From a virus (lineage: Duplodnaviria > Caudoviricetes), in IMG/VR virus record IMGVR_UViG_3300001580_000011, positions 1 through 64,000 of that record: DNA of 64,000 nucleotides. One strand, 5' to 3'. Shown here in pieces: positions 42,466 to 63,147 of the stretch. Position 1 is the stretch's first letter. Every line of letters starts with the position of its first letter. Under the pieces are notes generated by a model. The model saw only the letters and a program-made list of their open reading frames with translations, did not search any database and was not told where the DNA came from. A program made the translations under genes and the position numbers.

Positions 42466-43140
42466 TTACTCTACCTTGAACAAATCATCTGATAATTGTT
42501 TATTGACGATTTTTTTCTCTGGTTTTGGAACAGGACATCCTTCTTTTACCCACCTGACAACACATTCATCTTGATAATATAATCTTCTTACGGCTTCTTT
42601 TTGCTCTGATGTTATTTCATTGTATTCATTAAATGATATAAAATCTGGCAGTGTTCTTTCTGCCCGTTCCCATCTCCCATTATATTCATTTATGGCATAT
42701 GTAATCATATTGAATACACCTTCATTCACAATAATACCAATATTCCCGCAGGCCATCATACCCGTATTCATAAAACAAATTTGTAATCTTCTTTCGGTAT
42801 CAAACCAATGTGTTCCACTATCAGAGGATACTATCTGTATACCATTTGATGCCCGGTATCTTACGGGTATTTTTGTGCTAATCATCATAGCCATCATTGT
42901 TTTGACGGGGTTTTGACAATTCTCATCAAAATATAATGGTTCAGAGTAACTCCATTTTGTTGCTTCACATTCACAAATTATTTTTTCTCTCGGGGCTGTA
43001 ACAAGGACAGGTGGTGTAAACTCTGGATTATATGCGTTGAAAATTCTATCATCAATTGCCCTTTCATACTCATTTAACACTTCTTCCCATCCCTCTGGCA
43101 TATTTTCTTTTGACCAATTATACTTTGTATATGTTGACAT
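42466..43140 (-). CDS. Hypothetical protein with C-terminal DDLFKVE tag
   Basis: GGGAG RBS; 224 aa. Confidence 0.6.
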   Translation of the reverse strand: MSTYTKYNWSKENMPEGWEEVLNEYERAIDDRIFNAYNPEFTPPVLVTAPREKIICECEATKWSYSEPLYFDENCQNPVKTMMAMMISTKIPVRYRASNGIQIVSSDSGTHWFDTERRLQICFMNTGMMACGNIGIIVNEGVFNMITYAINEYNGRWERAERTLPDFISFNEYNEITSEQKEAVRRLYYQDECVVRWVKEGCPVPKPEKKIVNKQLSDDLFKVE

Positions 43141-43248
43141 TATCTATACTCCCTTGCAACAATATCCTTATATGGTTTTTCTTTCTATGGATTTTATTCC
43201 AATTTTTCTTTTATAACACTTATTATTTATTTTATTTTTTATAGATGA

Positions 43249-43746
43249 TCATTTATATGTTCGTATCAATAAATCCGATTTCTCCATAATATATTCTGAG
43301 GGCCCATCATATCTATCAATAGAGGTAACAACAATTTCTCGTATACCAGAATTTATAATGGACGATAAACAGTTTTTACAAGGAATAGAACAGGTTATAT
43401 ACATAGTAGTATCTTTAACACATACACCTATCCTTGCTGCATTTAAGATTGCGTTGACTTCAGCGTGTACCGCGATACAGTATTGTAAACCTTCACCTGA
43501 TTTGAAACCCATTACAAAGCGTGGACATTGGCCATTTTTATCCATAGGTAAGTTATAATCTAATGTTTTATCTATCCCCCACCTTTTGTCACAAGTTGGA
43601 ACGCCTCTTGGAATCCCGTTATACCCTGTAGAAATAATCGACTTGTCTTTGACGATGATTGCACCAATCTTTCTTGACATACACTGTGAATTTTCACCTA
43701 TAGTTTTCGCCACTTTCAAAAAATAACTATCCCAACGTTCCATCAC
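43249..43746 (-). CDS. dCMP deaminase
   Basis: TGYNG, HAE.NAI, PC..C. Confidence 0.92.
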   Translation of the reverse strand: MMERWDSYFLKVAKTIGENSQCMSRKIGAIIVKDKSIISTGYNGIPRGVPTCDKRWGIDKTLDYNLPMDKNGQCPRFVMGFKSGEGLQYCIAVHAEVNAILNAARIGVCVKDTTMYITCSIPCKNCLSSIINSGIREIVVTSIDRYDGPSEYIMEKSDLLIRTYK

Positions 43747-43946
43747 TTACCACCTTCTATATCGGATTTTATATCTTTTTCCAGTATATCAATATCTCGA
43801 TTAAGAATATAACTTATTTCACAGATAACATCGTTCATCATTTTATAAAGAAAATATTTTTTCTCTTTATCACTATCCTCTAATAGATTGATGGTATTAT
43901 ATATTGATATTAATTCATTCATTTCTTCTTCTGCATATTTTTTCAT
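43743..43946 (-). CDS. Hypothetical protein
   Basis: GGAGG RBS before ATG 43946. Confidence 0.5.
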   Translation of the reverse strand: MKKYAEEEMNELISIYNTINLLEDSDKEKKYFLYKMMNDVICEISYILNRDIDILEKDIKSDIEGGK

Positions 43947-44046
43947 ACAATCCTCCACGCAAAAATATATCCTATGATACAACCACTTTAAGTATACCAT
44001 AGGATATATTGTTATGAAACTATTGTTTTATCTAACCGAATATTCA

Positions 44047-44847
44047 TCAATCATACCGACTAACAACAGACATCGGTTGTGAGTTATAAAAGACATACTT
44101 GCAAAGTTTATTGACAGTATCCCGATCAGGTGTATGAGGAAGAACGGAATTTTCATACCATTTCTCAAAAAGTTTATCAAATTCCTCAACTCTCTGCATC
44201 AATTCCTCATATGACCATAATCCATTTCTAACCTGTAACAACAAATCTGCATCCGGTCTTGGAAATGTCATATGTCCGGTAAGAAGAAGCTCCTTACCTT
44301 CTGTCATCAACCTGTAAAGGTGCATGGCGTGTTTAGTATCATACCCAAACTTCTGTTCAAGAGCAAACCTTTTGGGATTACGGTTTTCTTTCCATAACAT
44401 CCAAGCCTTCAATTCCTCTGTATCAAAAGGTACTTTACCAAGCAACCATTCCCTATGGTTCTTCAACCTCTTGAGCTGTGCGTGAGCATAACCTGTGAAG
44501 GTATGCTTTGCCTTTGTAGAAAGAAAAGACTTTCTATGAAAAACAACATACTCCCATAAGTCGGAAGTTGCAAGCCACATCTTTTTCGGGACAAATAATA
44601 ATTCTACCATATTTGGATTACTATTTAAACATAATTTGAGAAACTTACGAAATTCATAGTAAACTACGTCATTCATCTTATCTTCAAACTGCTCTGGCCC
44701 GCTTTCAAGGCCAACCCAGTAATCATCGGGAGACATAAAAACCCCTCGTTCATCATAATCCGAATCGGGTGTATTGGTTCCATATAAATGAGAACCAGCA
44801 ACCGTCCTATATAATAGCACAAAATTTTTTGGTAACGTAACAGTCAT
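44047..44847 (-). CDS. Pol-beta-type nucleotidyltransferase (RlaP/Nuc-transf-like)
   Basis: GSHLYG...PDSD.D.RGVF, NPN.VELL, YD.K.AMH.YRL. Confidence 0.85.
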   Translation of the reverse strand: MTVTLPKNFVLLYRTVAGSHLYGTNTPDSDYDERGVFMSPDDYWVGLESGPEQFEDKMNDVVYYEFRKFLKLCLNSNPNMVELLFVPKKMWLATSDLWEYVVFHRKSFLSTKAKHTFTGYAHAQLKRLKNHREWLLGKVPFDTEELKAWMLWKENRNPKRFALEQKFGYDTKHAMHLYRLMTEGKELLLTGHMTFPRPDADLLLQVRNGLWSYEELMQRVEEFDKLFEKWYENSVLPHTPDRDTVNKLCKYVFYNSQPMSVVSRYD

Positions 44848-45044
44848 TGTATCACCAATTCCTTTATCTTGAAAACAATTTGTGTAATTTTTTGTCTTTC
44901 AAACGTAAGTTGATTCAACTTTATAAGAGTTTCTTCGGCCAAAATATAAGACTGGGCATCAAGAAGGTTTGTGAAGGCCCGGTCTATAATCGTCCGCTTT
45001 TCGCCAGCTTTTTTCAATTCCCTGTATACCAGATGTATCGTCAT
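44844..45044 (-). CDS. Hypothetical protein
   Basis: GAAGGGGG RBS; heads minus-strand operon. Confidence 0.55.
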   Translation of the reverse strand: MTIHLVYRELKKAGEKRTIIDRAFTNLLDAQSYILAEETLIKLNQLTFERQKITQIVFKIKELVIQ

Positions 45045-45074
45045 TCATATAAACCCCCTTCATTATTGTAAAGA

Positions 45075-45110
45075 TATTTATATTATACCATATACTTTAT
45101 ATAAGGTAAA
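45075..45110 (-). promoter_or_regulatory. Overlapping early (TTTACC-N17-TATAAT) and late (TATAAATA) promoters
   Basis: Both consensus sequences on minus strand upstream of 45044. Confidence 0.6.
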
Positions 45111-45111
45111 T

Positions 45112-45140
45112 AAAGAAAAACCCAGTGTTTCCACTGGGTT
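45112..45140 (-). terminator. Rho-independent terminator
   Basis: AACCCAGTG-GAAA-CACTGGGTT plus U tract on minus strand. Confidence 0.8.
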
Positions 45141-45165
45141 CTCTTTTCTTCTATTCAGTTTTACC

Positions 45166-45375
45166 TTACTTCTTTGCTCGAATCTCTGCCAAAAGTGCTT
45201 CCAACTTTGCTTTTATATCAGCAGTAAGTTTTCCAGATTGTGCATCAGCGATGAGTTCATTAACCTTTGTTTCGGCATCGAGAAACCATTTCTTATTGTT
45301 TCTCCAAACAAAGAAAAATATCACGCCACTGACAGCTACGCCAGCACCAAAAGCAATAATAACTTGTCCTTCCAT
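45166..45375 (-). CDS. Small single-TM membrane protein
   Basis: N-terminal TM helix, AAGGAGG RBS, own terminator. Confidence 0.7.
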   Translation of the reverse strand: MEGQVIIAFGAGVAVSGVIFFFVWRNNKKWFLDAETKVNELIADAQSGKLTADIKAKLEALLAEIRAKK

Positions 45376-45568
45376 ATAAAACCTCCTTTTTATTAAAACT
45401 TTGAGGAAAATTTCCTCATAAATCTTTATATTATAAAAAAATACAAAATGTTAAATTTTTTTTATAACAATCATACTTTTTGTAAACAATCGAAATAGGA
45501 CAATAACTTTTTTTACCCCCCTATTTTGGAGTTAAAAAAGGTCAGTGTGTTTACACACTTACAACTTC

Positions 45569-45665
45569 TTGACAAACCCCCCTCTCCGTGTTATACTATC
45601 ACCTATATTTATGATAAATAACATAATAAAAAAATATTTACAATCCCATTGAAACGTGTTACAAT
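45569..45665 (+). promoter_or_regulatory. Tandem sigma70-type promoters at strand switch
   Basis: TTGACA-N17-TATACT (45569-45597) and TTTACA-N17-TACAAT (45637-45665). Confidence 0.7.
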
Positions 45666-45707
45666 GGTATAAAATTATATTGTAATATGTAAGGCTAAGG
45701 AACAAGA

Positions 45708-47847: not shown

Positions 47848-48123
47848 TTGCAAGAAAAAAAGAAATGGTGTACTATAAACAATACATATGATATGTTTCC
47901 AGTAGGAACAAGGGTTCACGTTGTTACGGCCTGTCAGGATTTCAATTTCTTTTATGATGAAACTGGTTTTGTAACCAAGAACACAGGTGAATATCTCGGT
48001 ATCACCGTAACGTTTGATGAAAAAAGGGAATTTACCAACGGGGATGTCCAAACTAGTTTTGGATTTAATCCCGATGATTTATTTCCATTAGACATACCAA
48101 ATAAACTATTTGAAGTGGAGTAA
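47848..48123 (+). CDS. SH3/KOW-like protein with C-terminal KLFEVE tag
   Basis: FPVGTRV..., start uncertain. Confidence 0.55.
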   Translation: MQEKKKWCTINNTYDMFPVGTRVHVVTACQDFNFFYDETGFVTKNTGEYLGITVTFDEKREFTNGDVQTSFGFNPDDLFPLDIPNKLFEVE

Positions 48124-48126: not shown

Positions 48127-48474
48127 ATGTTTGAAGATATTCTTGGACCAAATAAATCGAATATGACCGATACCTCTGCCAGACATGGATGCGGCCGTCC
48201 TAGGCTAACGTGTAATGGTAAGTGTAATGGAATAGATGTTGATGGCCAACATATTTATTTCAATTATGTAGATATAAGCAACGGTAAAACATATAATATC
48301 AAATACCGTTGGCCGGATGCTATTATGAAAAAAATGTTCGTAAAAGACGACCCGGTTGAAATAGTGTTTTATGATGGTAAATTCAAAAATGTTTCAATAC
48401 AAAAGTGCCGTCGGCTGGATATTCGTAGTAAAAAATGGGATTTCATTGATATACAGGATATTATAAAACGATGA
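48127..48474 (+). CDS. Hypothetical protein, MFEDIL tag; paralogue of 46558-46878
   Basis: Shared motifs; GGAG RBS. Confidence 0.65.
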   Translation: MFEDILGPNKSNMTDTSARHGCGRPRLTCNGKCNGIDVDGQHIYFNYVDISNGKTYNIKYRWPDAIMKKMFVKDDPVEIVFYDGKFKNVSIQKCRRLDIRSKKWDFIDIQDIIKR

Positions 48475-48833
48475 AAAAAATTCTCAAAATAAAAAGTATA
48501 TCCGCACCGAGCAAAATATATAAATATATTACATTCCAAATTATAGAACAATCACATCGAGGTTCTAATTTTGGTGACGAATCATCTGATTTCTCGGCTT
48601 CTAACGGTATTGTTTTGGCATCTTCCTTGTTCCCGCAGATAGGATATACAGCATTTTATGTGCGTGGAACAAACCACGATGAAGACGATAAAATATTGAA
48701 AACTACATCTAAAACTTTTGAGAGAATTCAATTTGCCATACAAGAATATAATAATTTCTTTAATGGAAAGAAAATTTCTATCGGACAAGACGATTATATC
48801 AAAAGGATAGGTATCTCATATAACGATATTTAA
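48471..48833 (+). CDS. Hypothetical protein with GQDDYIKRIGI tag; paralogue of 62395-62826
   Basis: F.IIEQSHR, VRG....D, FE.I..A...YN shared. Confidence 0.65.
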   Translation: MKKILKIKSISAPSKIYKYITFQIIEQSHRGSNFGDESSDFSASNGIVLASSLFPQIGYTAFYVRGTNHDEDDKILKTTSKTFERIQFAIQEYNNFFNGKKISIGQDDYIKRIGISYNDI

Positions 48834-48954
48834 GTATGTCATAGTAAGATTTTACTATTGGAAATACCCACGGATATATTTTGGGCCATAATCATCGGCC
48901 GATGGAAAACAGAAAAAACTTTTATAAAAAGTGTATCGAGCATTAGTAGTGGTA

Positions 48955-49131
48955 ATGAAAAAATGTAAACACGTATATCAAATAGAAAAACATGGAAAAT
49001 ATTTTCTCGTAAAATGTATAAAGTGTAGACAAAGATTGTTTTGTGAACATTTTTCAGAAAAATATTTAATATGTGATGATTGTATAAACATTCTTCGTAA
49101 AAACATTTTAAAAGGAAAGTATTATGATTAA
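48955..49131 (+). CDS. Cys-rich zinc-finger protein
   Basis: C.H, C..C, C.H, C..C. Confidence 0.45.
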   Translation: MKKCKHVYQIEKHGKYFLVKCIKCRQRLFCEHFSEKYLICDDCINILRKNILKGKYYD

Positions 49132-49393
49132 TAAAAACAAAGAAATGAGAGCAGGTTGGATACATGAATTTTATATATCGTCAACGGCCACACATCCTTA
49201 CCTCTATTATATTCCGGTAATATTTACGGATACGGTTATTCTTTATACGGAAAACGGGATAAGTGAAATTGGTAAATACAAAATAAGTGAAGTAGAAAAA
49301 TCTTATTATAAAATTATTCCTATAAAAAAATTCGATACAGCTGAACCAAAAATTGGGCAGGATGAATATCTTAAAAGAATGGGCATAAGGTAG
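49124..49393 (+). CDS. Hypothetical protein with GQDEYLKRMGI tag
   Basis: AAGGA RBS. Confidence 0.6.
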   Translation: MINKNKEMRAGWIHEFYISSTATHPYLYYIPVIFTDTVILYTENGISEIGKYKISEVEKSYYKIIPIKKFDTAEPKIGQDEYLKRMGIR

Positions 49394-49467
49394 TATAATT
49401 TTATAAAATATTTTCTACTGTTAACCAAAAGATACATATAACACACCGTTTTTACTCATCTTTTCTT

Positions 49468-49497
49468 GTTTACATATACCTTCAACTATGATATAAT
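49468..49497 (+). promoter_or_regulatory. Early-type promoter
   Basis: GTTTACA-N17-TATAAT with TG. Confidence 0.8.
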
Positions 49498-49520
49498 ATC
49501 TCATATTTGGAGGTTTAATC

Positions 49521-49910
49521 ATGAAGAAAGAACACGCTGAAAAATTATTGAAGGATTTTCCCTATCAGTTTTCGTACTATCACGATCACACAAAACCCAT
49601 GATGCCAATGGTATTTGGATTTGAGTGTGGTGATGGTTGGTATGAGATCATTTACAATCTCACCAAGAAATTATCGGAAGTATCGCCCACTACAAAAGTA
49701 ATGCAAGTCAAAGAGAAGTTTGCTGGCCTACGTTACTATGTCGATTCATGTAATGAAGAAGGTTTCGAATTGATTAATCAAGCAGAAAAATTATCGTATA
49801 AAACCTGTGAAAATTGTGGTTCGATGGAAGATGTAAAAATAAGAGGAAAATACTGGGCACAAACCCGTTGTGAAAAATGTAAAGACGTTTCAGCGAGGGA
49901 TACGAGATGA
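49521..49910 (+). CDS. Conserved-looking phage protein with C-terminal zinc ribbon
   Basis: FECGDGW, QVKEKF.GLRYY, TCENCG; GGAGG RBS. Confidence 0.7.
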   Translation: MKKEHAEKLLKDFPYQFSYYHDHTKPMMPMVFGFECGDGWYEIIYNLTKKLSEVSPTTKVMQVKEKFAGLRYYVDSCNEEGFELINQAEKLSYKTCENCGSMEDVKIRGKYWAQTRCEKCKDVSARDTR

Positions 49911-49946
49911 AAGTAAAATCTTTGATACAAAGAGGTCATTGGGTAT

Positions 49947-50234
49947 ATGATACAAAAACCGAAAAATCAAAAACCATTGAATGGTGAATCATATCTGACA
50001 GCTAAGATTGTGACTTCCAAATATTCTACATTTTGGTATGAAAGGGAAATAGGTGAATTGTATTATATTTGTCCTACAAGACGACAACATCGTCCATATC
50101 GTAATGGAGCTCCCGGTGATTGGTATTATGAGGTAATAGGCCCCTTTGCCAGTAAAAGATTTTTATTGGAACGCGATATTGAAATAGTTGTATTAGATGA
50201 ATATAAAATTCCAGAAGAGTTATTTGAAATATGA
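49947..50234 (+). CDS. Hypothetical protein with IPEELFEI tag
   Basis: WY...IG motif; start uncertain. Confidence 0.55.
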   Translation: MIQKPKNQKPLNGESYLTAKIVTSKYSTFWYEREIGELYYICPTRRQHRPYRNGAPGDWYYEVIGPFASKRFLLERDIEIVVLDEYKIPEELFEI

Positions 50235-50443
50235 AAACAAAAGTGAGATATATTGGTGATAAGGACTGTTGGGGATTTGTACAAAATTTCATTTATGATG
50301 TAACAGATATTGACGAGTTAAGCGGTAATATATTACCATATTGGATTGTTTTGAATAGTGGTATCAGAGCATCTGGTATGGCTTTCATGAAAGAAGATGC
50401 TGTGATCGTATCAATAATTCCAGACGAGTTATTTGAAATATGA
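50231..50443 (+). CDS. Hypothetical protein with IPDELFEI tag
   Basis: ATGA coupling. Confidence 0.6.
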   Translation: MKTKVRYIGDKDCWGFVQNFIYDVTDIDELSGNILPYWIVLNSGIRASGMAFMKEDAVIVSIIPDELFEI

Positions 50444-50658
50444 AGTGTGATAATCGTAACGGACTATTTGGTGGATATAAAGCCTCCATTAATTGTACAA
50501 ATAAAGCGATATGGAAAATAACCATAGATCGAAACGAGGTCAATATAAAACCGATGTATGTGTGTGATTCATGTTCTTTCCATATTTCAAAGACAATAAA
50601 GAAAAGGTTTGAATTACACGGGAGAGAAACAATAATTGAGATGGAGAGAATATTATAA
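50440..50658 (+). CDS. Cys-containing hypothetical protein
   Basis: ATGA coupling. Confidence 0.55.
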   Translation: MKCDNRNGLFGGYKASINCTNKAIWKITIDRNEVNIKPMYVCDSCSFHISKTIKKRFELHGRETIIEMERIL

Positions 50659-50795
50659 AGTGGAAAAATAGTGAAGAATTTGAACATAAGAAAAAAAGAA
50701 TAGCTGAATGGCATAGGGAGCATAGGGAAGTAAAAGAAAGGTAATAGGCCGTATAAAATATTATGGTAATTATTTCACTTATGAATGAATAGAAT

Positions 50796-51053
50796 ATGAA
50801 AAAGATATTTCAAATGAACATAACCGATTCAAACTTGAAAAAAATTGGAAAATACAAATATGATAAATTTGTACAGGATTATAGAAGATGTGGTGGCAGG
50901 TTTTATGTGTTCAATGACCAAATTGGAAACAGTGTAATATATGTGGAAAGATCATATGACCCAAAATTATACTGGATTGTGATGAAGAAAAATGGTATGC
51001 TCATTGACGTGCCTATAGAAGTTACACTGGATGGAGGTCTATTTGAGATATGA
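50796..51053 (+). CDS. Hypothetical protein with LDGGLFEI tag
   Basis: ORF coupled to next. Confidence 0.55.
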   Translation: MKKIFQMNITDSNLKKIGKYKYDKFVQDYRRCGGRFYVFNDQIGNSVIYVERSYDPKLYWIVMKKNGMLIDVPIEVTLDGGLFEI

Positions 51054-51239
51054 AGGTAAGAGCGATAAAAGCCAAATATGATGATGTGTGGTATTATAAT
51101 GATATAGGAAAGATTTTTGAAGTAGAAGAAAAATTATATATGTCAACTTACTATCTATTGAAAAACCGACCTTATGAAACAATCAGAGGCTTCCGTATTT
51201 CAGATGTAAAAGTTACCGGACGAATTATTTGAGATATAG
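51050..51239 (+). pseudogene. Small ORF whose LPDELFEI tag lies in the +1 frame
   Basis: Frame 0 stops at 51232; TTA CCG GAC GAA TTA TTT GAG ATA TAG at 51213-51239. Confidence 0.55.
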
Positions 51240-51251
51240 AAAGAACGAATT

Positions 51252-51590
51252 ATGAAACGAGAATTGTTATTTTCAGTGACAAAGGACGATTTTGATGTTC
51301 AAACGTTCAAAGCTGGTGGTAAGGGCGGGCAACACCAGAACACCACAAATACAGGTGTTCGTATCATTCATAAGGAATCTGGTGCAGTAGGTGAATCCCG
51401 TGAAGAACGGTCACAGGCACAAAACAAGAAAGTTGCCTTCCGTAGATGTATTGAAACAAAGATATTTCAATTATGGTTGAGACTCAAATCATCTGCCCGT
51501 ATGAAAGGAATATATGATATTGAGAAACATCTTGACAAGATGATGGAAGAAAAGAATATCAAAGTAGAAACCTATACACCAAAGGAGTAA
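51252..51590 (+). CDS. Stand-alone GGQ peptidyl-tRNA hydrolase domain (ArfB/PrfH-like)
   Basis: GGKGGQHQN.T.TGVRI.H..SG......EERSQ.QNK. Confidence 0.88.
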   Translation: MKRELLFSVTKDDFDVQTFKAGGKGGQHQNTTNTGVRIIHKESGAVGESREERSQAQNKKVAFRRCIETKIFQLWLRLKSSARMKGIYDIEKHLDKMMEEKNIKVETYTPKE

Positions 51591-51594
51591 TAAA

Positions 51595-51807
51595 ATGTCT
51601 AAATCACCTGAAATGGAAAAAATTTTAAACGATATATCGAAACGCATGTATGGGAGAGAAAGGAACTCTAATATGTGTGTAGTTTGTGGTTCCGATAAGG
51701 TAAAACCAACCGATTTCAAGGATAATCTGTCTCGAAAGGAATATACCATTTCCTATATGTGCCAGAAATGTCAGGATAAAGTGTTTTTCGACAATGGAGA
51801 ACAATAA
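51595..51807 (+). CDS. Zinc-binding hypothetical protein
   Basis: CVVC...F.D.LS.KEY.IS.MCQ.CQD; AAGGAG RBS. Confidence 0.65.
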   Translation: MSKSPEMEKILNDISKRMYGRERNSNMCVVCGSDKVKPTDFKDNLSRKEYTISYMCQKCQDKVFFDNGEQ

Positions 51808-51909
51808 AACAGTTATATTATTTGGTAAAATAAAATCAAAAGTGCAAGTAGGCCGATACTGACATATGAGGGCTGTAACGTTATACAGGATAAACAAGCT
51901 AAGTATATC

Positions 51910-52074
51910 ATGAGCCTTATTTGCAAAGACTCCAAGGCCGAGAACAAGCTGGAAAAGATAATGGAAAAAGTGGACGAAGTTATATTAAACCGCCAAGAAA
52001 ACGAAGAACATCCTTATCTAGGAGATGTTTTCGACGAACTCAGGCAAATTACCTTCACGGAGAGAAAGAGATGA
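51910..52074 (+). CDS. Small hypothetical protein (54 aa)
   Basis: Translated by eye; ATGA coupling to next. Confidence 0.4.
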   Translation: MSLICKDSKAENKLEKIMEKVDEVILNRQENEEHPYLGDVFDELRQITFTERKR

Positions 52075-52502
52075 AACTGGAAACAGCGCAGAAGTTACAA
52101 TGGCCGTGGCCTACAGAATGGGTTTACCTTGTAAAAAAAACCGGGCACATAGAGTCTCGCCACAAAAAAGAGTCCTGGGGTAAGTATTACGATCTACAAA
52201 AAGTAATACAAAACCCCTCTGTCGAGGAGATGCTGGAGAGGATGCCGAACTTTATCTGTAAAAATGCCAGCGATCCGGTTCTTTATAAAGCGATTATCTG
52301 GTCGGATAGAGACTTTAGTGTTGGATACCGTGGCGGCAAGGGGGAGGGGTTTATGCTTAATTTTCCCGATAACCTCGCCGAAGCCCTCGCCCTTCTCTGC
52401 ATCTGGCTTCGGGACAATAAACTAATGGATTGGAAGCGAGAAGAGGTGGGAAATGAAGAACACGTTAAGGCATCTAAAAAAATTGGATGGAACAACTCAT
52501 GA
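52071..52502 (+). CDS. Hypothetical protein
   Basis: Likely start MKLETAQKL at 52071. Confidence 0.6.
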   Translation: MKLETAQKLQWPWPTEWVYLVKKTGHIESRHKKESWGKYYDLQKVIQNPSVEEMLERMPNFICKNASDPVLYKAIIWSDRDFSVGYRGGKGEGFMLNFPDNLAEALALLCIWLRDNKLMDWKREEVGNEEHVKASKKIGWNNS

Positions 52503-52693
52503 AAAAATGTCTAGAATGTGGTAACTGGAGTGTTAAAGTATTAAGTAGTCAAGAAGAGCAATGCTTGGCCTATGGTTGCTCATACAAAGTAATATATTCA
52601 ACAGACCGAGAAAGAATATTGGAATTAGAAAAACAAGTCAAATATTTAAACACTATCATAGTGGAGTGGTCAAGGGAAAGAGGGGAGTTATGA
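52487..52693 (+). CDS. Zinc-ribbon/coiled-coil protein
   Basis: CLEC...C...C. Confidence 0.5.
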   Translation: MEQLMKKCLECGNWSVKVLSSQEEQCLAYGCSYKVIYSTDRERILELEKQVKYLNTIIVEWSRERGEL

Positions 52694-53058
52694 ACATAGA
52701 CCGATTTATCGCTGAGAATGTTATGCACGTTTGCTGGCATAAGGCCGATGAAACTTCGTGGTACGGAGAACGGTGTTCTTTATGTGGATTAAACACAATG
52801 GATGATGATAATAAATTGTTTTCTTTAGTTGAAACACTTCATCCCAATTATTCAACCGGAAAACATAAAACCGACTTGATGAACTTCTGCGTAGAACAGG
52901 AATGGTGGCTGAAATTTTGGGATTGGGCTTATTTCGATAATTATCTACCAACAGGAGAATATAGAAAATCGTCAGGACCGCTTCATGCTGTATTCACCGC
53001 CTATCTCTGGCGCAGCCTACGTGAACTGGTGGCGGTTTATCATGGGTATAAAGAATGA
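52690..53058 (+). CDS. Hypothetical protein
   Basis: GGGGAG RBS before ATG 52690. Confidence 0.6.
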   Translation: MNIDRFIAENVMHVCWHKADETSWYGERCSLCGLNTMDDDNKLFSLVETLHPNYSTGKHKTDLMNFCVEQEWWLKFWDWAYFDNYLPTGEYRKSSGPLHAVFTAYLWRSLRELVAVYHGYKE

Positions 53059-53059
53059 T

Positions 53060-53284
53060 ATGAAAACATTTGCAACGGGCGAAATTGTAAGATGGGGTGA
53101 TTCATTATGGATAGTATCGGAATCGAGAAAAGATAAACTGGTATTACTTAGCATGAATCGTGCTAATTGCTCTGCCTATATATCGGAAAATTGGCCAATA
53201 AAGAAATCGGACAGACAAGTGAAATGGGTAGCTAATAGTGTATATGATTTTATCACTCGCACACTAAAAAATGTAGGAAAATAA
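53060..53284 (+). CDS. Hypothetical protein (SH3-like)
   Basis: F..GEIVRW pattern. Confidence 0.5.
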   Translation: MKTFATGEIVRWGDSLWIVSESRKDKLVLLSMNRANCSAYISENWPIKKSDRQVKWVANSVYDFITRTLKNVGK

Positions 53285-53293
53285 TTTTATAAA

Positions 53294-53656
53294 ATGGATG
53301 TATTTGATTTTATATTAATATGCCTTCCGATTGCTGCTTTTGTTTGTACTAATGTTTTTTATTTTGTTAGAACATTAAACAGAATAAAAGAAGATATAAA
53401 GAGGATAGAACAAGAGCAAGCTAGAAGGGCAGAAGAAGCTCGAAGAATATTGTCTGCAGCTAGGGTGGAAAGACAAAAATTAATATCATATATGAACTTG
53501 GTTGGAATTACCCACCCATTTACTAAAGAAGAAATTTCAAAGAAAAGGAGGGTCCTTAGTTTAAAATATCATCCAGATCGTAATAACGGAAAAGACGATA
53601 AAATGAAAAGAGTAAACGAAGCGTGTGATTATTTAGAAAAAATGTCACAAGGATAA
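53294..53656 (+). CDS. Membrane-anchored DnaJ-domain protein
   Basis: N-terminal TM; KYHPDRN...MK.VNEA. Confidence 0.85.
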   Translation: MDVFDFILICLPIAAFVCTNVFYFVRTLNRIKEDIKRIEQEQARRAEEARRILSAARVERQKLISYMNLVGITHPFTKEEISKKRRVLSLKYHPDRNNGKDDKMKRVNEACDYLEKMSQG

Positions 53657-53712
53657 GGAAAAAGATTTACTTGAAGCTAGGGAAATGGAACACGTAAGAG
53701 AAAGTAACCATC

Positions 53713-53826
53713 GAATAATACTCTTATAGGGGATAGTTTTATAATGGATTTACAAAAAGTCATCATCACTAGCCAAAGACCTTGTATACATTTATGTGAA
53801 TAGGTGATATAACAGAAAGAAAATCA
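53713..53826 (+). repeat. Promoter cassette copy A
   Basis: GAATAATACTCTTATAGGGGATAGTTTTATAA and promoter-like sequence repeated at 54956-55047. Confidence 0.75.
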
Positions 53827-53841
53827 GTAGGAGATTAGAGG

Positions 53842-54066
53842 ATGAAGAAGTTATTTTGTATATTATTGGTTGTTTTACTTACTGGTTGTGGTATTCCATT
53901 CACCAAGATAGATATGTCATTATATCAAAATGATTACCTTGAGTGTGAATGGGAAGCCGATAGGGTGGCCGGATATTATAAAGGTGGCCCTCACGCTGAA
54001 CAACTTATAAAATGTATGGAAAAAAGAGGATATAATACACATAGGGAGTATGTTGAAATGTTATGA
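53842..54066 (+). CDS. Lipoprotein; paralogue of 54364-54630
   Basis: LTGC lipobox; FTK.DMS, EC, CME.RGY. Confidence 0.75.
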   Translation: MKKLFCILLVVLLTGCGIPFTKIDMSLYQNDYLECEWEADRVAGYYKGGPHAEQLIKCMEKRGYNTHREYVEML

Positions 54067-54364
54067 AAACATTTATAACAGCAATCATAATGGTATTGGC
54101 ATCAACCAGTTTTGCTTTAGCGGACACAGGAAGAATATATGATGATCGGGGGTTGGAACAAAGACAGAAGAGGGTAGGTATTATTCACCCGATGGGAAGT
54201 ATCAAGGGAAAGAGGTAGATGGCCGATATTACTCAAATGACGGCAAATATGTAGGTAAACAAGATGGTGATAGATACTACTCAAGTGATGGTTCATATAG
54301 AGGTAAAGAAGTGAATGGCCGTCTGTATAATACAACTGGGAAATATAAAGGGAGTAAGAGATAA
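54063..54364 (+). pseudogene. Frameshifted exported repeat protein (GRYYSxDGxYxGK repeats)
   Basis: Signal peptide in frame 0; repeats continue in another frame after G5 run 54148-54152. Confidence 0.65.
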
Positions 54365-54630
54365 TGAAGAAGTTACTTGGTCTATTGATAATGTGTTTTA
54401 TGCTAACTGGATGTGCAACACATTTTACAAAGAATGATATGTCAAGAATAAATGATGATAAAACCGAATGTCTGAGTCTTGGTTCACAAGCAGGATTATC
54501 TGCTGATACTTTTATAGTTTATATTGATTGTATGGAAACCAGAGGATATGTAACTGACCCCGAATATAAGAAAGGATTTGTTGATGCTTACCAGAAGAAA
54601 GAAGCTTCATTGAAAAAGTATAAACAATAA
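54364..54630 (+). CDS. Lipoprotein
   Basis: LTGC lipobox; paralogue of 53842. Confidence 0.75.
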   Translation: MKKLLGLLIMCFMLTGCATHFTKNDMSRINDDKTECLSLGSQAGLSADTFIVYIDCMETRGYVTDPEYKKGFVDAYQKKEASLKKYKQ

Positions 54631-54673
54631 ACACTATCTTCATATTTTATATCTCCTTAGCAATAATAACATA

Positions 54674-54761
54674 ACTAGCCAAAAACCATAATACAAAAAA
54701 TAATAACATAATTACAAAAAGTCATCATTACAAAAAGTCATCATTACTAGCCAAAAACCAT
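54674..54761 (+). repeat. Short direct repeats
   Basis: ACTAGCCAAAAACCATA x2, ATTACAAAAAGTCATC x2; related copy near 53750-53777. Confidence 0.75.
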
Positions 54762-54796
54762 ATTATATAGGGTAAATCTAATAAGGAGGGATAACA

Positions 54797-54937
54797 ATGG
54801 AAGATTTGCAAAAAAGTCTCGTTACCAAAATTGGTGAGCAATTGAAGTCTGATAAACCAAACATACAATTGCTTGACGTATTGAACCGATTGTTGGGAAC
54901 AGTCAATAACTATCTTGTTGCTATAAGAGGTTACTGA
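54797..54937 (+). CDS. Small hypothetical protein (46 aa)
   Basis: TAAGGAGG RBS. Confidence 0.55.
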   Translation: MEDLQKSLVTKIGEQLKSDKPNIQLLDVLNRLLGTVNNYLVAIRGY

Positions 54938-55005
54938 TAGTAATATCCCCTATAGGAATAATACTCTTATAGGGGATAGTTTTATAAAATCAATAACATA
55001 TTCTT

Positions 55006-55035
55006 GTTTACATTTATATGAATAGGTGGTATAAT
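55006..55035 (+). promoter_or_regulatory. Early-type promoter (cassette copy B)
   Basis: GTTTACA-N17-TATAAT with TG. Confidence 0.8.
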
Positions 55036-55063
55036 AGAAAGAAAAGTAGTAGAAGAGTGTAAA

Positions 55064-55336
55064 ATGGATTTTGAGACAAATTTGAGGTATGAACAGGAAA
55101 AAAAGTCAGAAGTGTTGGGGGCATTACTTTCATTTATTTTGCCCGGTATAGGTAGTATGTATGCTGGGAAGGTAGGTAAAGGAATTATGTTCCTTTTCGG
55201 CGCGATCATTGGTTATATATTATTTGTCATCCCCGGCTTGATCGTTCACCTGTTTTCTATCATATCAGGATATAATGATGTAAAGATTTCAAATACCCTT
55301 TTGGGATTGGAATATCTCAAAAGAGAGAAAGAGTAA
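55064..55336 (+). CDS. TM2-domain membrane protein
   Basis: KKS...ALLS.ILPG.G.MY.G..GKG. Confidence 0.75.
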   Translation: MDFETNLRYEQEKKSEVLGALLSFILPGIGSMYAGKVGKGIMFLFGAIIGYILFVIPGLIVHLFSIISGYNDVKISNTLLGLEYLKREKE

Positions 55337-55340
55337 GATT

Positions 55341-55697
55341 ATGAAAAAGATATTGTGTATAATAATTGGATTGGTTATGGTATTGTTTACTAATAATGTC
55401 TTTGCTCAATGGGGAACACCTGTTTTAAGGGAAAGAGATTTAATGATTATTGGTAATGAGGATATGGTTGATTCGCTATGTCCAGCACAACAAAGTATAA
55501 ACAAGTGTTGGCAGAAAGTAATGACAATAAAAAGTGAACCTACCTATAGTAAAGATAGGAAACTTCAAATGAATGCTTATAATTGGAGTGAAGAATGTAA
55601 GGTGATTGAGAAGAATTATAAAACTTGTGAAAGGGTATTAAAGAAGATTCGTGCACAAGATTTAAAGGATTGTAAGAAGGCCGGGTATTGTAAGTAA
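55341..55697 (+). CDS. Exported Cys-rich protein
   Basis: Signal peptide ending VFA. Confidence 0.65.
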   Translation: MKKILCIIIGLVMVLFTNNVFAQWGTPVLRERDLMIIGNEDMVDSLCPAQQSINKCWQKVMTIKSEPTYSKDRKLQMNAYNWSEECKVIEKNYKTCERVLKKIRAQDLKDCKKAGYCK

Positions 55698-55950
55698 GGG
55701 TATAACGATATAAAAAGTAGCAACCAATCTATCACTACACAAAAACCCTATCATTTAATCCCCGACTGAACATATAGCATCTCAGCCCATTCTTATTCGA
55801 TAATTCATATTACATCATTGTGTAAAGTGTCACCTTGGCACCCCTTTCATATCAATACTCTGCAGACTACTCCCGGTTTTATACTTTTTACACTGAAAAC
55901 ACTATACATCACCCCTTCTACAGTAACCAAAATATAAAATATTATATCAC

Positions 55951-55991
55951 TGTCGGTATTCTTTACACATTAGTGTCGGTATTCTTTACAC
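55951..55991 (+). repeat. 18-bp direct repeat
   Basis: TGTCGGTATTCTTTACAC x2, 23-bp period. Confidence 0.85.
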
Positions 55992-56040
55992 TCGATTAAT
56001 TATTCTTGTAAGTTATTGATATTATGTAGAAAAATTAATT

Positions 56041-56070
56041 GTTTACATTTATGTACATAGGTGGTATAAT
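56041..56070 (+). promoter_or_regulatory. Early-type promoter
   Basis: GTTTACA-N17-TATAAT with TG; IHF-like site at 56009-56021. Confidence 0.8.
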
Positions 56071-56098
56071 AGTATTATAAACAATTGGAGATTAACAG

Positions 56099-56296
56099 AT
56101 GAAAGATAAAAGGGAACGTAGGAAAGAGCTTTTTAAGATATCGGTTAAACCGGATACCTCGTCTGATTATCCCGATGAAATGGAGATTGCTTATACTAAG
56201 AACGGTTTCCAGAAAACTATTTTTAGTTTGTTGCCCGAGGAAATGGAACAATTTATTTTGGTTTTTCAGGACACTCTGAAAAAAATACAGAGATAA
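56099..56296 (+). CDS. Hypothetical protein
   Basis: GGAG RBS. Confidence 0.6.
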   Translation: MKDKRERRKELFKISVKPDTSSDYPDEMEIAYTKNGFQKTIFSLLPEEMEQFILVFQDTLKKIQR

Positions 56297-56304
56297 GAGG
56301 AAAT

Positions 56305-56526
56305 ATGGCCAGAGGACGTAAAATAGATGTTAACAGTGTTCGCCATCGGAAGTTTTGCAAGAGGCTTGAAAACGTTGACAGGTATATGAATGCTGTCACG
56401 CGTGGTATTGAACGTGGAAACAAGATGTATACAAATTCCTATGATGTAGCCCTGGCTGTTATAACGGAGCTTCGGATTGACGGATTCCAGATTATTCCCC
56501 ACCCTACCAGGAAAGGTGACAAGTAA
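56305..56526 (+). CDS. Hypothetical protein
   Basis: GAGG RBS. Confidence 0.6.
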   Translation: MARGRKIDVNSVRHRKFCKRLENVDRYMNAVTRGIERGNKMYTNSYDVALAVITELRIDGFQIIPHPTRKGDK

Positions 56527-56912
56527 TGCCTAAGATGAAAGTGTATAACGATAAAAACATCATTCGTTTAAAGGGTTTTGGTGAAACTAAATCCTGGGTT
56601 CGTAAGAACATCAAAAACAAGGGTGGCGTTGTAGACCCCGATACTTATGAATGGGTTATGCCTAATAAGGATCGTTATGTCGTGTATGCTGTGGGTGTTC
56701 GTTTAATTCCTGCCAGTGAAGTGGCTAAACGTAAGAAAGTTAAACCTGTAAACTATGCCACCACTGATGATTTGGGTGATGTGAAAACCCCGGTGGAAAA
56801 GAAGGTTCGTGTTAAACGGGCTGTGAAAGACCCTGTTGTCAAGGTGTTAAAGCTTCGTATTGTTCGTAAACCCACTAACGGTAGCAAGATTATCAATTTG
56901 AGGATTAGGTAA
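56526..56912 (+). CDS. Basic hypothetical protein
   Basis: TAATG coupling, K/R/V-rich. Confidence 0.6.
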   Translation: MPKMKVYNDKNIIRLKGFGETKSWVRKNIKNKGGVVDPDTYEWVMPNKDRYVVYAVGVRLIPASEVAKRKKVKPVNYATTDDLGDVKTPVEKKVRVKRAVKDPVVKVLKLRIVRKPTNGSKIINLRIR

Positions 56913-57191
56913 TATGGTTGTATACATTACTAAGCAATGGGAACCTTGTGAGTGTAAGGCTGCTTGTGATTATACTATTGATCTGGTATTCATGAAGGAA
57001 GCGGATGCTGAGAAGCGTGCCGAGGAACTGTATCAAGGTTTTTATACTGTGGAACAGGTGATTGAATAATGGAAATCTTACACTTCTGGTATGATTGTAT
57101 GAAGGAAAAAGAAGGCCAATGGATGTTTATTGGCGGTGTAGTGTTCATGATCTGTATTTTAATCATTATTGCCTTATAGGAGAATGTAACA

Positions 57192-59626: not shown

Positions 59627-59772
59627 CAGCTCCCTTATATAACATATGTTGTATGTGTGGACATATCAGATTATTATATAGCCACCATATGACAATCCTC
59701 GGAGAGCTGTGTGATTATTGTGTAATAGAGTTGGAAACAAAAAAATTATAACAACAAAAGGAGATTTACCAG

Positions 59773-59994
59773 ATGAAGAAGACAGCAAAGCCCGCAACAG
59801 ACACCAAGGCCCCCGCCAAGGCAACCGCAAAGAAGCCTGAGGCGCCCAAGACCGTTACCGGCACCCTCAAGTATAACAAGGACACCAAGCGCTTCCACGC
59901 ATACGATATCAAGGGTGGAACCTTCAATGGTGCCGTGTATTTCGAGAAGGATGGCGATATCCCTAAGACCATTACCCTGACCATCGTTTCGTAA
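59773..59994 (+). CDS. Small basic protein with PAK-rich tail, possibly DNA-binding
   Basis: AAGGAG RBS; strongly biased codons. Confidence 0.7.
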   Translation: MKKTAKPATDTKAPAKATAKKPEAPKTVTGTLKYNKDTKRFHAYDIKGGTFNGAVYFEKDGDIPKTITLTIVS

Positions 59995-60241
59995 TACGAA
60001 ACCTATATGATACCCTATGCAAGATCGGCGGTGTCTTTTGATGCCTAACCGGGGCTGTACAGGGTATCATATAAATATAATTATACTGTATCGGAAGGGG
60101 GTGATTATCTTCTACACTGAATAACAGTTAGACCATATTTAGATTGTATTAGAATGAATTAAAATGACTATCGAAGGACTAAAGAAACCAATGAAGTAAG
60201 ACTGTTACACTATTAACTTAAATTGATATTAGGGTTATTAT

Positions 60242-60291
60242 AAACCCCTATCCCACAGGTCTTCGGATGTCTGGCAGATAGGGGTTTTTTT
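60242..60291 (+). terminator. Rho-independent terminator
   Basis: AAACCCCTATC...GATAGGGGTTT plus T run. Confidence 0.7.
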
Positions 60292-60376
60292 ATGCCCATC
60301 AATTCAATCGAAAAATTTATAACTAGGAAATTCCCATATAAGGGGTATTATGTCCCCAATATGTCCCCTTACACTA

Positions 60377-60468
60377 TAGTGTCACCTTACAAAACCTTAC
60401 ATAGTGTCACCTTACAAAACCTTACACTACAGTATATAGCAAGGTGAAAAAAGGTGAAAAAAGGTGAA
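60377..60468 (+). repeat. 25-bp tandem repeat x2 and AAGGTGAAAA x3
   Basis: TAGTGTCACCTTACAAAACCTTACA x2; 10-bp unit at 60441-60468. Confidence 0.85.
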
Positions 60469-60499
60469 TTTAAGATATAAATATATGTAACTATTATGT

Positions 60500-60934
60500 T
60501 TGGAGGGTGACAAGGTGAGTAAATTGAATAGAGATAAGGTGTTTTATGAAGCAAAGATCGAGAATGTCCCTGTTGATGTTCTAGCAAAGAAATATTCAGT
60601 AACTCGTAAGTCAATATATCAAATCCTACAAGGCTTTGATAAGGATGATAAGGTAAGGATATTAAAGGTTGAGATTGAAAGATTAAAGGCTATGAATGAA
60701 AAACTCAATGTACATTCTTTATTGAGAACTGAAATTGAGAAGCTAAAAAGGGTGATAGACGATATATGGGTGAATAAAGGTGAAAAAAGGTTACAACCCG
60801 ATACCAAACCCAATAGAAATGGGGATAGAGAGGGTGACACTGATGTACCCTCAATCAAGGATATATTTGCAAATAGAAACGGTAATGGTATCAAGAGGGC
60901 CACTGATGAAGATTGTGGTGGTATATTCGAATAA
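60500..60934 (+). CDS. HTH plus coiled-coil protein
   Basis: LAKKYSVTRKSIYQIL helix-turn-helix; start may be GTG 60515. Confidence 0.65.
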   Translation: MEGDKVSKLNRDKVFYEAKIENVPVDVLAKKYSVTRKSIYQILQGFDKDDKVRILKVEIERLKAMNEKLNVHSLLRTEIEKLKRVIDDIWVNKGEKRLQPDTKPNRNGDREGDTDVPSIKDIFANRNGNGIKRATDEDCGGIFE

Positions 60935-61220
60935 TGAAAGAAACCACCACCTTTCAATACTCCAAAGAATGTATACCGGTATATGTACTATATGATATAA
61001 TACCCTGTATATACAGGTACTTAAGTACTATGTACATCCGATGTAACATATGGTATAATGAATGTATAAAATAAGGTTAACCTACATATAATGTAGGCCT
61101 ATGGGTCTACATTATTTGGAAATAATAATTAATTATAAATTAATTATTACATTATTTGGAAATACCCTAAAAACGGGTTAACCCTTATGAAAACAGGTGC
61201 TGAAATTGCAGGAATTAGCT

Positions 61221-61435
61221 TAGATATGCACTTGCTTATTCAATTACAGGGAGTTATCAGCTTATAATTGCAACTATGCACTTGCTTATTCAATTACAGG
61301 GAGTTATCAGCTTATAATTGCAACGTTGCACTATTACAGGTAGATATGCACTTGCTTATTCAATTACAGGTAGATATGCACTTGCTTATTCAATAGTTAT
61401 CAGCTTATTTAATTACAACGTTGCACTATTACAGG
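61221..61435. repeat. Modular 10-bp-phased repeat field (possible origin/packaging site)
   Basis: TATGCACTTGCTTATTCAAT at 61225, 61275, 61345, 61375; other modules recur. Confidence 0.85.
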
Positions 61436-61487
61436 TGGTTATAAAAAAATTGCTGGGCCGGGAAAATATATTATAGGGGAGATTAAT

Positions 61488-61685
61488 ATGTCTGTAAGAA
61501 CAAAAAACCGTATTATAGGATGGTGTTTGATCGGTATTCCAATCCTGATCGTAACAATTCTTCTAATGATTGAATTTGGATCTGTACCGGTATTACAATT
61601 CATAGCTGGATTTGGTGCTATCGTAATAGGTATTACGATGGTTGCTGTAGGTATATTATATATATCGGGAGAGTATGATAAATGA
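61488..61685 (+). CDS. 2-TM membrane protein
   Basis: GGGGAG RBS; two TM helices. Confidence 0.7.
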   Translation: MSVRTKNRIIGWCLIGIPILIVTILLMIEFGSVPVLQFIAGFGAIVIGITMVAVGILYISGEYDK

Positions 61686-62014
61686 AAAGAGTGTTATCTG
61701 TAATCGTGGTAACGTGTTTCCTGTTTACGATGGTAGGGTGCGGGTCGAACAAAAATATTCCCATTAAAGACAAGGAAGGAAAGTATCGGACTTATACGTT
61801 TCAGCAGGTTGGGCTGTTCAATCAGGAAAAGAAAAACCCCCAAGTCGAATATAGTGTGATCGTTGGTAACGTGATTTGGGCAGTTATTCTCTGTGAGACT
61901 GTTATTGCACCTGTTGTTATTTTCGGTTGGTATCTGTATGAACCGATTGGTACATCTGTTGAAGGTGTGCCTGGTGCTGTGGAGCCTCCACAGCATGCTG
62001 TGGAGGATAGATAA
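61682..62014 (+). CDS. Lipoprotein with a TM segment
   Basis: MVGC lipobox; GNVIW..IL.ET...P. Confidence 0.7.
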   Translation: MKRVLSVIVVTCFLFTMVGCGSNKNIPIKDKEGKYRTYTFQQVGLFNQEKKNPQVEYSVIVGNVIWAVILCETVIAPVVIFGWYLYEPIGTSVEGVPGAVEPPQHAVEDR

Positions 62015-62087
62015 TGTTGGAATGGTTGTTGATAGCTATTGTAATATTGGTTATACTGATATTATATTTGGATAATCGGATAAACAA

Positions 62088-62282
62088 ATGAAAAGATATT
62101 TTATTCCCGATAAACACGGTGTACCGTGGACGGATGCTTTTCGTGAGGATATGGATCGACAGGGATGGAAGGCGGAGATTATAAGTGAGTATCATTTCGA
62201 TACTTTCGATATATATCGTACGGAAGAAAGTAAAAAAAAGTATAAGACGATTGGAGTGTTAATAAAAAATGTGGTAAAATAA
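62088..62282 (+). CDS. Hypothetical protein
   Basis: ORF. Confidence 0.5.
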   Translation: MKRYFIPDKHGVPWTDAFREDMDRQGWKAEIISEYHFDTFDIYRTEESKKKYKTIGVLIKNVVK

Positions 62283-62394
62283 TTGTAGAGGAAATTCGAA
62301 TAATAGACGATAATAGAGAAATGAAAAGAGAATTATATATAAAGCTTGTTTCTTGTAGTGTATTTATTGTGCTTGGTTTCTTTGATCGTAAACA

Positions 62395-62826
62395 ATGAGT
62401 TGTTTGAAAAATAAAAAATTGCCGGCGGCGGGAAATTTTGAAAATGGGGAGTTTACGCTTTTTATGAAAAAGAATTTGAAAATAGCATGGATATCGAAAT
62501 CTGTCGATAGTGTAGTGTTTCGGATTATTGAACAATCTCACCGGAACGATGATTTTTCAAATCTGTTGGAAACGGAGCCGAATGAATATCTTTGCCCGGA
62601 TACGAAGTTAAGGATTATTTCCTGTAGTATGCCTGAGTGGGATACGATTGGAAAAATCCTTTTTGTTCGAGGTTCAGATAGACGACATGACAATGATGAA
62701 ATGTTGGTTTCTGTAAAAGAATTCGAAAAAATTGAAAAAGCGGTGGAGAATTACAATCGAGAACATAATGGGTTTGAACCGTTAAAAATAGATTGTTTAC
62801 AGGACGATCTTTTTATAATAGAATAA
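62395..62826 (+). CDS. Hypothetical protein with QDDLFIIE tag; paralogue of 48471
   Basis: IIEQSHR, FVRGS; start may be later (MKKNLK). Confidence 0.6.
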   Translation: MSCLKNKKLPAAGNFENGEFTLFMKKNLKIAWISKSVDSVVFRIIEQSHRNDDFSNLLETEPNEYLCPDTKLRIISCSMPEWDTIGKILFVRGSDRRHDNDEMLVSVKEFEKIEKAVENYNREHNGFEPLKIDCLQDDLFIIE

Positions 62827-62832
62827 AAGAGA

Positions 62833-63147
62833 ATGGTTTCGTCTTTCGGGGCTATCTCTGTTGGTGCGAAAAAGACGACAATAGGTGGTTTTCTCGTGGA
62901 AAAAAAGACATATATAGTGAAATATATAGGAAATCGTATGGGCGATATAATGACTTCGAAATGGACCGGTAGTCTTTTTCTGGTGACGGACGGGGGAGCT
63001 TCATGGAATATTGTAGACGTTCTCCATTATGAAAACCCGTTCGAACTGGACCGCCAGGGGGACAACTCGTTTTTTAAATTCAATGCAGAAGTCGTTCAAG
63101 GTTATACGATGGTTGAATTGGAAGACGATTTATTTAAATTGGAATAA
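62833..63147 (+). CDS. Hypothetical protein with EDDLFKLE tag
   Basis: VKYIG motif; start uncertain. Confidence 0.55.
   Translation: MVSSFGAISVGAKKTTIGGFLVEKKTYIVKYIGNRMGDIMTSKWTGSLFLVTDGGASWNIVDVLHYENPFELDRQGDNSFFKFNAEVVQGYTMVELEDDLFKLE

Follow-up and report, generated by a model that had tools for sequence, protein, structure and literature searches.

Why should a series of small phage proteins, several of which share no similarity in the rest of their sequence, end in nearly the same residues? We addressed this question in a 64,000-nucleotide stretch of viral DNA (hereafter the window), which forms the first 64 kb of a 98,256-base linear viral contig in IMG/VR (IMGVR_UViG_3300001580_000011; CheckV completeness 38%) and which, judged by its gene content, is from a distant, uncultured T4-like myovirus. 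An earlier note on this DNA had listed eight protein endings between positions 42,466 and 63,147, most of them with an acidic pair before Leu-Phe, and had read them as an addressing system that recruits accessory proteins to one hub. All eight endings are present, and four copies just beyond the window bring the number on the contig to 12. The shared ending, which we call tail A, has the consensus Phi-[P/D]-x-[D/E]-[L/M]-F-x-Phi-(E)-stop, where Phi is a hydrophobic residue and positions are numbered from the Phe (0). We find that tail A is real and non-random, selected as a peptide, modular, terminal and common to a clade of T4-like phages. We further propose, with a probability that we place at roughly 0.45, that it may act as a docking label through which its carriers would bind one shared partner. 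Genes are named below by the coordinate at which they begin in the feature table (Table 1).

Enrichment of tail A at protein ends

A relaxed form of the motif closes 11 of the 194 gene products of the contig, the twelfth copy being the frameshifted tail of 51050, whereas 2000 within-protein shuffles gave a mean of 0.006 matches and a maximum of 1. The enrichment over shuffled termini, which the earlier note had set as a check on its reading, is therefore clear. The core [DE][DE]LF has six copies no more than three residues away from a stop but only two elsewhere in 29,718 residues, and an acidic-LF ending was found in none of the 527 shadow open reading frames (ORFs) on the contig, a set made up of the 529 non-selected ORFs minus two real tagged genes. 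When tripeptides were counted without bias over the nine C-terminal residues of every product, the most frequent were LFE, LKR, YLK, DLF and RIG, all of which derive from tail A or from a second terminal motif, tail B, described below.

One of the eight copies had been noted in the +1 frame of 51050, and this tail is truly out of frame, with one extra A in a run of four separating the ORF from an intact tail and stop. The shift site reads G-T-A-A-A-A-G (region 51206–51239), and the frameshifted sequence is identical in three contigs from other samples, which argues against a one-off assembly error. Either the gene has mutated recently at this point or the run is a +1 slip site, with AAA-G read as AAG, from which both tagged and untagged forms of the protein would arise.

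Peptide-level conservation and the ribosome-binding site of the next gene

Across the copies, the Leu before the Phe is written with five codons (TTG, CTA, TTA, CTT and CTG) and the Phe with TTT or TTC, and the flanking hydrophobic positions switch among Ile, Val and Leu codons. An orthologue of 42466 with 57% identity keeps the tail, with Leu replaced by Met, behind an indel-rich linker; an orthologue of 62395, encoded on a 6.6 kb contig, has Val-Val in the tail in place of Ile-Ile; and in a related phage the tail copies differ by synonymous or Asp/Glu changes only. Because the Leu codons vary, the changes between orthologues are conservative and the copies differ synonymously or by Asp/Glu exchange, tail A is, by these sequence comparisons, selected as a peptide, as had been suggested from its varied codons.

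The opposite view places the conservation in the nucleic acid, with the tail codons serving as the translation-initiation region of the next gene (a Shine-Dalgarno sequence and its spacer) or as a recombination cassette. The gene junctions lend this some substance, since most tagged genes overlap the start of the next gene by 4 or 1 bases or stop 3–6 bases short of its ATG. The ATGA overlap (ATATGA) puts the acidic pair 12–17 bases before the next ATG, where GGAG-type sites precede large genes; in this phage the first base of such sites mostly lies 10–15 bases before the start codon. The acidic pair appears as GAG or GGAGG at 9 of the 11 overlap junctions and at none of the 7 other junctions (one-sided Fisher p ~0.001), where it is GAT or GAC. 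The odd G-G and K-E variants of the tail are perfect Shine-Dalgarno sites, and the optional final Glu at the other junction type likewise supplies GAG. However, the acidic pair is kept as GAT or GAC where no Shine-Dalgarno site is needed, as in 62833, whose next listed gene begins 97 bases downstream at 63244 (an ATG is also present 3 bases past the stop); the five Leu codons and the conservative protein-level substitutions speak against conservation of the nucleic acid; and positions −5, −4, −1, 0 and +2 lack any RNA-level explanation. We regard this view as largely refuted, with a residual probability that is minute. The ribosome-binding site of the next gene, which the earlier note had named as the case that could overturn its reading, thus sets the choice between Glu and Asp and shapes the G-G and K-E variants, without being the origin of the motif. 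The same bases code twice, for a peptide motif and for the ribosome-binding site of the following gene.

Anatomy of tail A and of the proteins that carry it

We aligned 28 homologue representatives from other samples on the Phe. The resulting order is a hydrophobic residue (−5), Pro or Asp (−4), any residue (−3), Asp or Glu (−2), Leu or Met (−1), Phe (0), any residue (+1) and a hydrophobic residue (+2), followed by the stop or by one further residue, usually Glu. The hydrophobic positions form one face of a helix starting at the Pro, and the linker from the last helix of the body to the Phe measures 12–31 residues in these representatives. In an AlphaFold2 model of 62395 the body has a predicted local distance difference test score (pLDDT) of 88–98 and the last 23 residues one of 72–80, with a three-residue helix at D-D-L. 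The Phe is followed by 2–3 residues in every copy; the last residues vary (I, V, L, E, Q or F), as does the distance from the Phe to the carboxyl end. Nascent-peptide arrest at termination was considered and rejected because the distance from the Phe to the stop is not fixed. An ESM Atlas search with the tail segment returned a score of 0.79, which is at noise level.

The bodies that precede the tail had been described as mostly unrelated, which is correct for several of them but overstated for the set. BLAST and profile analysis identified a common domain, called EQSHR from a motif conserved in it, in 62395, 64741, 69054, 69395, 63991 and 42466, as well as in 48471, a gene with tail B. The tail-trimmed bodies of 49947 and 51050 score Z 5.3 against each other, with all other pairs at background, and are probably paralogues. 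No similarity to any other body was found for 47848, 50231, 50796 and 62833. By sequence, the twelve tagged proteins would comprise about six body types.

At E ≤ 0.001 the EQSHR profile matches 1,249 proteins in a set of 1.84 billion representatives. Some members of the family carry tail A after the body, others tail B or a longer G-N-[FC]-F-x-T-x-E-E-A module, and others stop there; because all of these alternatives occur at one position, the tails behave as exchangeable modules. The domain itself, of about 100 residues, is a beta-sandwich with a C-terminal helix and invariant Q, G, Y and N, and some homologues hold up to five copies in one protein. Pfam returned no family for the ten proteins scanned and PHROGs no match for the five scanned tagged proteins of the window; the EQSHR domain is absent from both databases. 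A confident model of the domain gave no Foldseek match at E ≤ 0.001, and in VIA-align the best hits, at Z 3.1, were scattered PH-like domains, so that no fold was called.

Tail A in related phages

Two related contigs, G001 and G002, were reached through UvsX, at 56–65% identity, and a third, G003 (161.6 kb, 71% complete), through a search with the degenerate DNA pattern of the tail. This pattern, written for P-[DE]-[DE]-L-F-E-I-stop, matched ten stretches in IMG/VR, with real ORFs only in G001, G002, G003 and one other contig; the remaining stretches fall outside real ORFs and were discarded as chance matches. Structural and recombination genes are common to G003 and the phage described here, almost no small genes are, and the EQSHR domain is absent from G003. 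Seven ORFs of G003 nonetheless end in tail A, compared with two internal matches to the core in 51,160 residues, and these ORFs have bodies related neither to one another nor to the tagged bodies of this phage; one of the seven matches PHROGs of unknown function only. In G001, G002 and G003 alike, a tagged gene stands between gp47 and gp46 and another directly before UvsX, and in G003 a third lies between a gp41-type helicase and the polymerase. These relatives carry tail A without tail B.

Tail B and N-terminal motifs

Tail B, D-[DEN]-Y-[LI]-[KR]-R-[IML]-G followed by 1–6 residues, is found on seven ORFs of the contig and is kept in EQSHR homologues from other samples. Basic and amphipathic, it may resemble a MinD-type membrane-targeting helix.

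Two sets of protein starts were seen in addition. The string M-F-[DE]-[DE]-[ILV]-[ILV] has four copies in the six-frame translation of the whole contig, all at the start of a real ORF (17629, 46558, 47059 and 48127), against a rough chance expectation of 0.1–0.2, and may be an N-terminal counterpart of the tails. In G003, fifteen ORFs encoding 95–478 amino acids (for example in 48778–57000 and 141204–148186) share the start M-[RK]-[LF]-x-x-[YF]-[LI], in most cases with x-E after it, which may resemble the T4 capsid-targeting sequence with its L-x-E protease site.

Candidate partners and alternative explanations

Conservation at the level of the peptide, modularity, a linker of variable length and recurrence on unrelated proteins, also in relatives, give tail A the features of an address or docking peptide. 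The addressing system that had been proposed for it keeps these supports; that one hub reads the tail would be a further step, the favoured hubs fit imperfectly, and the carriers are less unrelated than described. In the mechanism that we propose, tail A would be a portable short linear motif, an acidic amphipathic helix turn at the end of small early proteins, where a flexible linker of variable length would hold it. The hydrophobic positions −5, −1, 0 and +2 would plug into a groove, flanked by the acidic residues, and as a docking label the tail would attach many fast-evolving accessory proteins to one shared partner. By analogy, our best single guess for this partner is a PCNA-like sliding clamp of the phage or another hub of the replisome or of recombination, although we consider it unlikely that the partner is the clamp itself.

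The analogy comes from T4, in which the clamp-binding ends of gp43, gp33 and gp55, read by gp45, are hydrophobic-acidic, follow divergent and probably unstructured linkers, and can be swapped between proteins (Geiduschek and Kassavetis review, PMC2988020). In the T4 record these ends read ...SLDFLFG in gp43, ...SLDFLY plus four residues in gp55 and ...TLDFLL in gp33. Tail A is likewise short, hydrophobic and acidic, lies at the C-terminus or close to it, and follows a linker that diverges in sequence and varies in length. It has in common with the T4 ends the core D-x-L-[F/Y], in which D(−3), L(−1) and F(0) are the only residues to coincide. Unlike the T4 motif [S/T]-L-D-F-L-[F/Y/L], it is acidic at −2, shows Pro or Asp at −4 and continues with x-Phi after the Phe, and it is carried by a dozen small early proteins without assigned function, whereas the T4 motif is carried by three proteins with known clamp functions.

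Several observations weigh against this reading. Tail A is absent from the expected clamp ligands of the clade: the G003 polymerase finishes with ...IDSIFG, and IDY stands close to the C-terminus of four gp55 homologues, as GIDY in three of them and as AIDY in the one from the window. In T4, the three clamp ligands differ hardly at all. Tail A is about as similar to the gp32 ends of T4 (D-D-L-L-x-D-L) and of G001 as it is to the clamp motif. In the window, the genes at the two syntenic positions, between gp47 and gp46 and before UvsX, are without the tail, and neither a clamp, a DNA polymerase nor gp32 was found on the contig. The polymerase and gp55 ends weaken the clamp as a candidate without removing it, because identity of the three clamp-ligand ends is not general across the family (PMC2988020).

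Searches for the partner gave the following results. Queries with T4 gp33 and gp45 found no match in four related contigs. Candidate clamp ORFs lie on either side of gp44/gp62 in G003, at 151590–152339 and 153653–154231; an ORF beside gp44/gp62 yielded a single-sequence model with a pLDDT of 35, which is unusable. A 228-amino-acid protein common to this phage and G003, suspected to be a clamp, was not clamp-like by eye in pairwise alignment, a judgement that no family search backs. A MoxR-type AAA+ reader was sought and found in none of the four contigs. A literature search returned nothing relevant on the tail peptide strings or on hijacking of clamp motifs by small phage proteins.

Other known docking peptides were compared in the same way. 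The bacterial beta-clamp motif Q-L-[S/D]-L-F has in common with tail A a terminal or near-terminal D/E-L-F, and the 42466 copy even starts with Q-L-S; however, the Gln is not conserved (it is Ile in the orthologue with 57% identity, and position counts show no preference for Gln), and the hydrophobic anchor of tail A lies one residue further from the L-F. The tails of E. coli SSB, T4 gp32 and T7 gp2.5 and gp4 resemble tail A in combining a C-terminal acidic run with a hydrophobic or aromatic residue for docking at the replisome. In those systems the tail belongs to a single hub protein and has many readers, whereas here many proteins carry the tail, and the Phe of tail A is followed by 2–3 residues where the aromatic residue of the E. 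coli and T7 tails is the very last one. The PIP box (Q-x-x-[ILM]-x-x-[FY]-[FY]) differs in spacing, and tail A has a single aromatic residue and no Gln. With the Gln not conserved, the Phe not last and the polymerase and gp55 of the clade ending differently, the hubs that the earlier note had favoured fit imperfectly.

Three further explanations compete with docking to one shared hub. The tail could be a turnover or handling signal by which a host or phage protease, unfoldase or chaperone clears or processes the early proteins together, which would suit its terminal, linker-exposed position on early genes behind sigma-70-type promoters and the J-domain protein encoded nearby. Its last residues and its Phe-to-end distance vary, however, which sets it apart from ssrA-type degrons, where the extreme end itself is recognised, and to our knowledge the motifs recognised by ClpX, Lon and DnaK are not acidic; we consider such a signal quite unlikely. 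Less probable still is that the tail mimics the acidic end of gp32 and competes for its sites on replication and recombination proteins, in which case it would meet many pockets and not one hub. The likeness to the T4 and G001 gp32 ends and the placement of tagged genes of the relatives inside the gp46/47–UvsX and helicase–polymerase modules are what this explanation has in its favour, set against a Phe that is invariant in tail A and absent from the gp32 ends; moreover, we know of no defined receptor motif for the extreme end of gp32.

An equally slim chance is given to a tail that acts within its own protein, as a fold-back or homo-oligomerisation helix, or through pairing of the acidic tail A with the basic tail B, with no outside hub involved. 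Here the short helix that AlphaFold2 places in the tail, at moderate confidence, and the opposite charges of tails A and B at the same position on paralogues have to be balanced against the presence of the same eight residues on at least six unrelated bodies in this phage and seven in G003, which a body-specific contact is hard to reconcile with. The length of the linker is not conserved, and the occurrence of tail A without tail B in the relatives also argues against pairing.

We therefore retain docking to one shared partner as the preferred, tentative reading. A wider proposal, which we regard as speculative and on balance improbable, is that the clade uses a code of interchangeable terminal peptides (tail A, tail B and perhaps the M-F-D-D-I-I start) to route at least a tenth of its fast-evolving early proteins to a few fixed hubs; if it were true, new accessory genes would reach the replisome, the membrane or host machinery simply by gaining a tail. 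Most small early phage genes are without known function or homologues, and an address peptide would offer an experimental way in, as a single pull-down with a peptide of 12 residues could reveal what a dozen proteins bind, and likewise hundreds of their metagenomic relatives. Should the partner be the sliding clamp, the three-client system of T4 would widen into a tool-belt for accessory proteins.

Genomic setting of the tagged genes

The T4-like character of the phage is marked by a gp55 late-sigma homologue, and the contig also encodes structural proteins (tail tube, baseplate hub and baseplate wedge proteins), gp47, gp46, UvsX, a Ro60-type protein and a sugar-biosynthesis block. A 137 kb sister contig carries identical proteins. 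No near relative was found among GenBank phages by megablast and tblastn with the region and three tagged proteins, and IMG/VR single-protein scans queried with 62395 and 42466 gave no match. From about 45.5 kb to the end of the window, dense small plus-strand ORFs lie behind matches to a sigma-70-type promoter (TTTACA-17-TATAAT), and because of this placement the region looks like early genes. In addition to the promoter match in Table 1, consensus matches occur at 45569, 47324, 55007 and 56042.

Table 1 Tagged genes and associated features of the window and the adjoining contig.
Feature	Coordinates	Strand	Remarks
Tail A gene, 224 aa (amino acids), EQSHR-like central domain	42466..43140	-	Tail at the low-coordinate end, ~42469-42498
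Tail A gene, 91 aa, singleton body	47848..48123	+	N-K in place of the acidic pair
Tail A gene, 95 aa	49947..50234	+	First of four tandem tagged genes; early-type promoter upstream
Tail A gene, 70 aa, singleton body	50231..50443	+	
Tail A gene, 85 aa	50796..51053	+	G-G variant is GGAGG, inside the Shine-Dalgarno window of the next gene
Tail A gene, tail out of frame by one base	51050..51239	+	Tail 51213-51239; A4 run 51208-51211; ORF as written stops at 51232
Tail A gene, 143 aa, EQSHR-family body	62395..62826	+	
Tail A gene, 104 aa, no homologue outside the same phage	62833..63147	+	
Tail A gene, EQSHR family	63991..64320 (genome coordinates)	+	Only 63991..64000 inside the window
Further tail A copies past the window	64741-65082, 69054-69395, 69395-69805 (genome coordinates)		
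Tail B gene, EQSHR-family paralogue	48471..48833	+	Tail B where paralogues have tail A
Tail B gene	49124..49393	+	
Three consecutive tail B genes	63244-63453, 63456-63737, 63734-63991	+	
Tail B ORFs past the window	64374-64739, 65079-65294 (genome coordinates)		
gp55 late-sigma homologue	16218..16631	+	E 4e-17; marks the phage as T4-like; C-terminal segment unlike tail A
Sigma-70-type promoter match (TTTACA, 17 nt (nucleotides), TATAAT, with TG)	49469..49497	+	Consensus match; precedes the tandem tagged genes

Some neighbouring genes were recorded in their own right. The early-type operon that holds the four tandem tagged genes continues directly with a gene for an RF-1 domain protein of 112 amino acids (51252–51590) with G-G-Q, similar to the peptidyl-tRNA hydrolase ArfB. 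A small protein encoded at 53294–53656 combines a hydrophobic segment at the N-terminus, a charged helix and, at the C-terminus, a J domain. An RlaP-type nucleotidyltransferase, of an RNA repair pathway family (44047–44847), and Ro60 (TROVE; 24219–25592) are encoded on the same fragment. Finally, the baseplate-hub protein (2802–3617) ends in P-L-E-D-F-F-S and its G003 homologue in P-D-N-F-F-L; these tail-A-like residues close a late structural protein that is conserved, and they probably belong to its fold.

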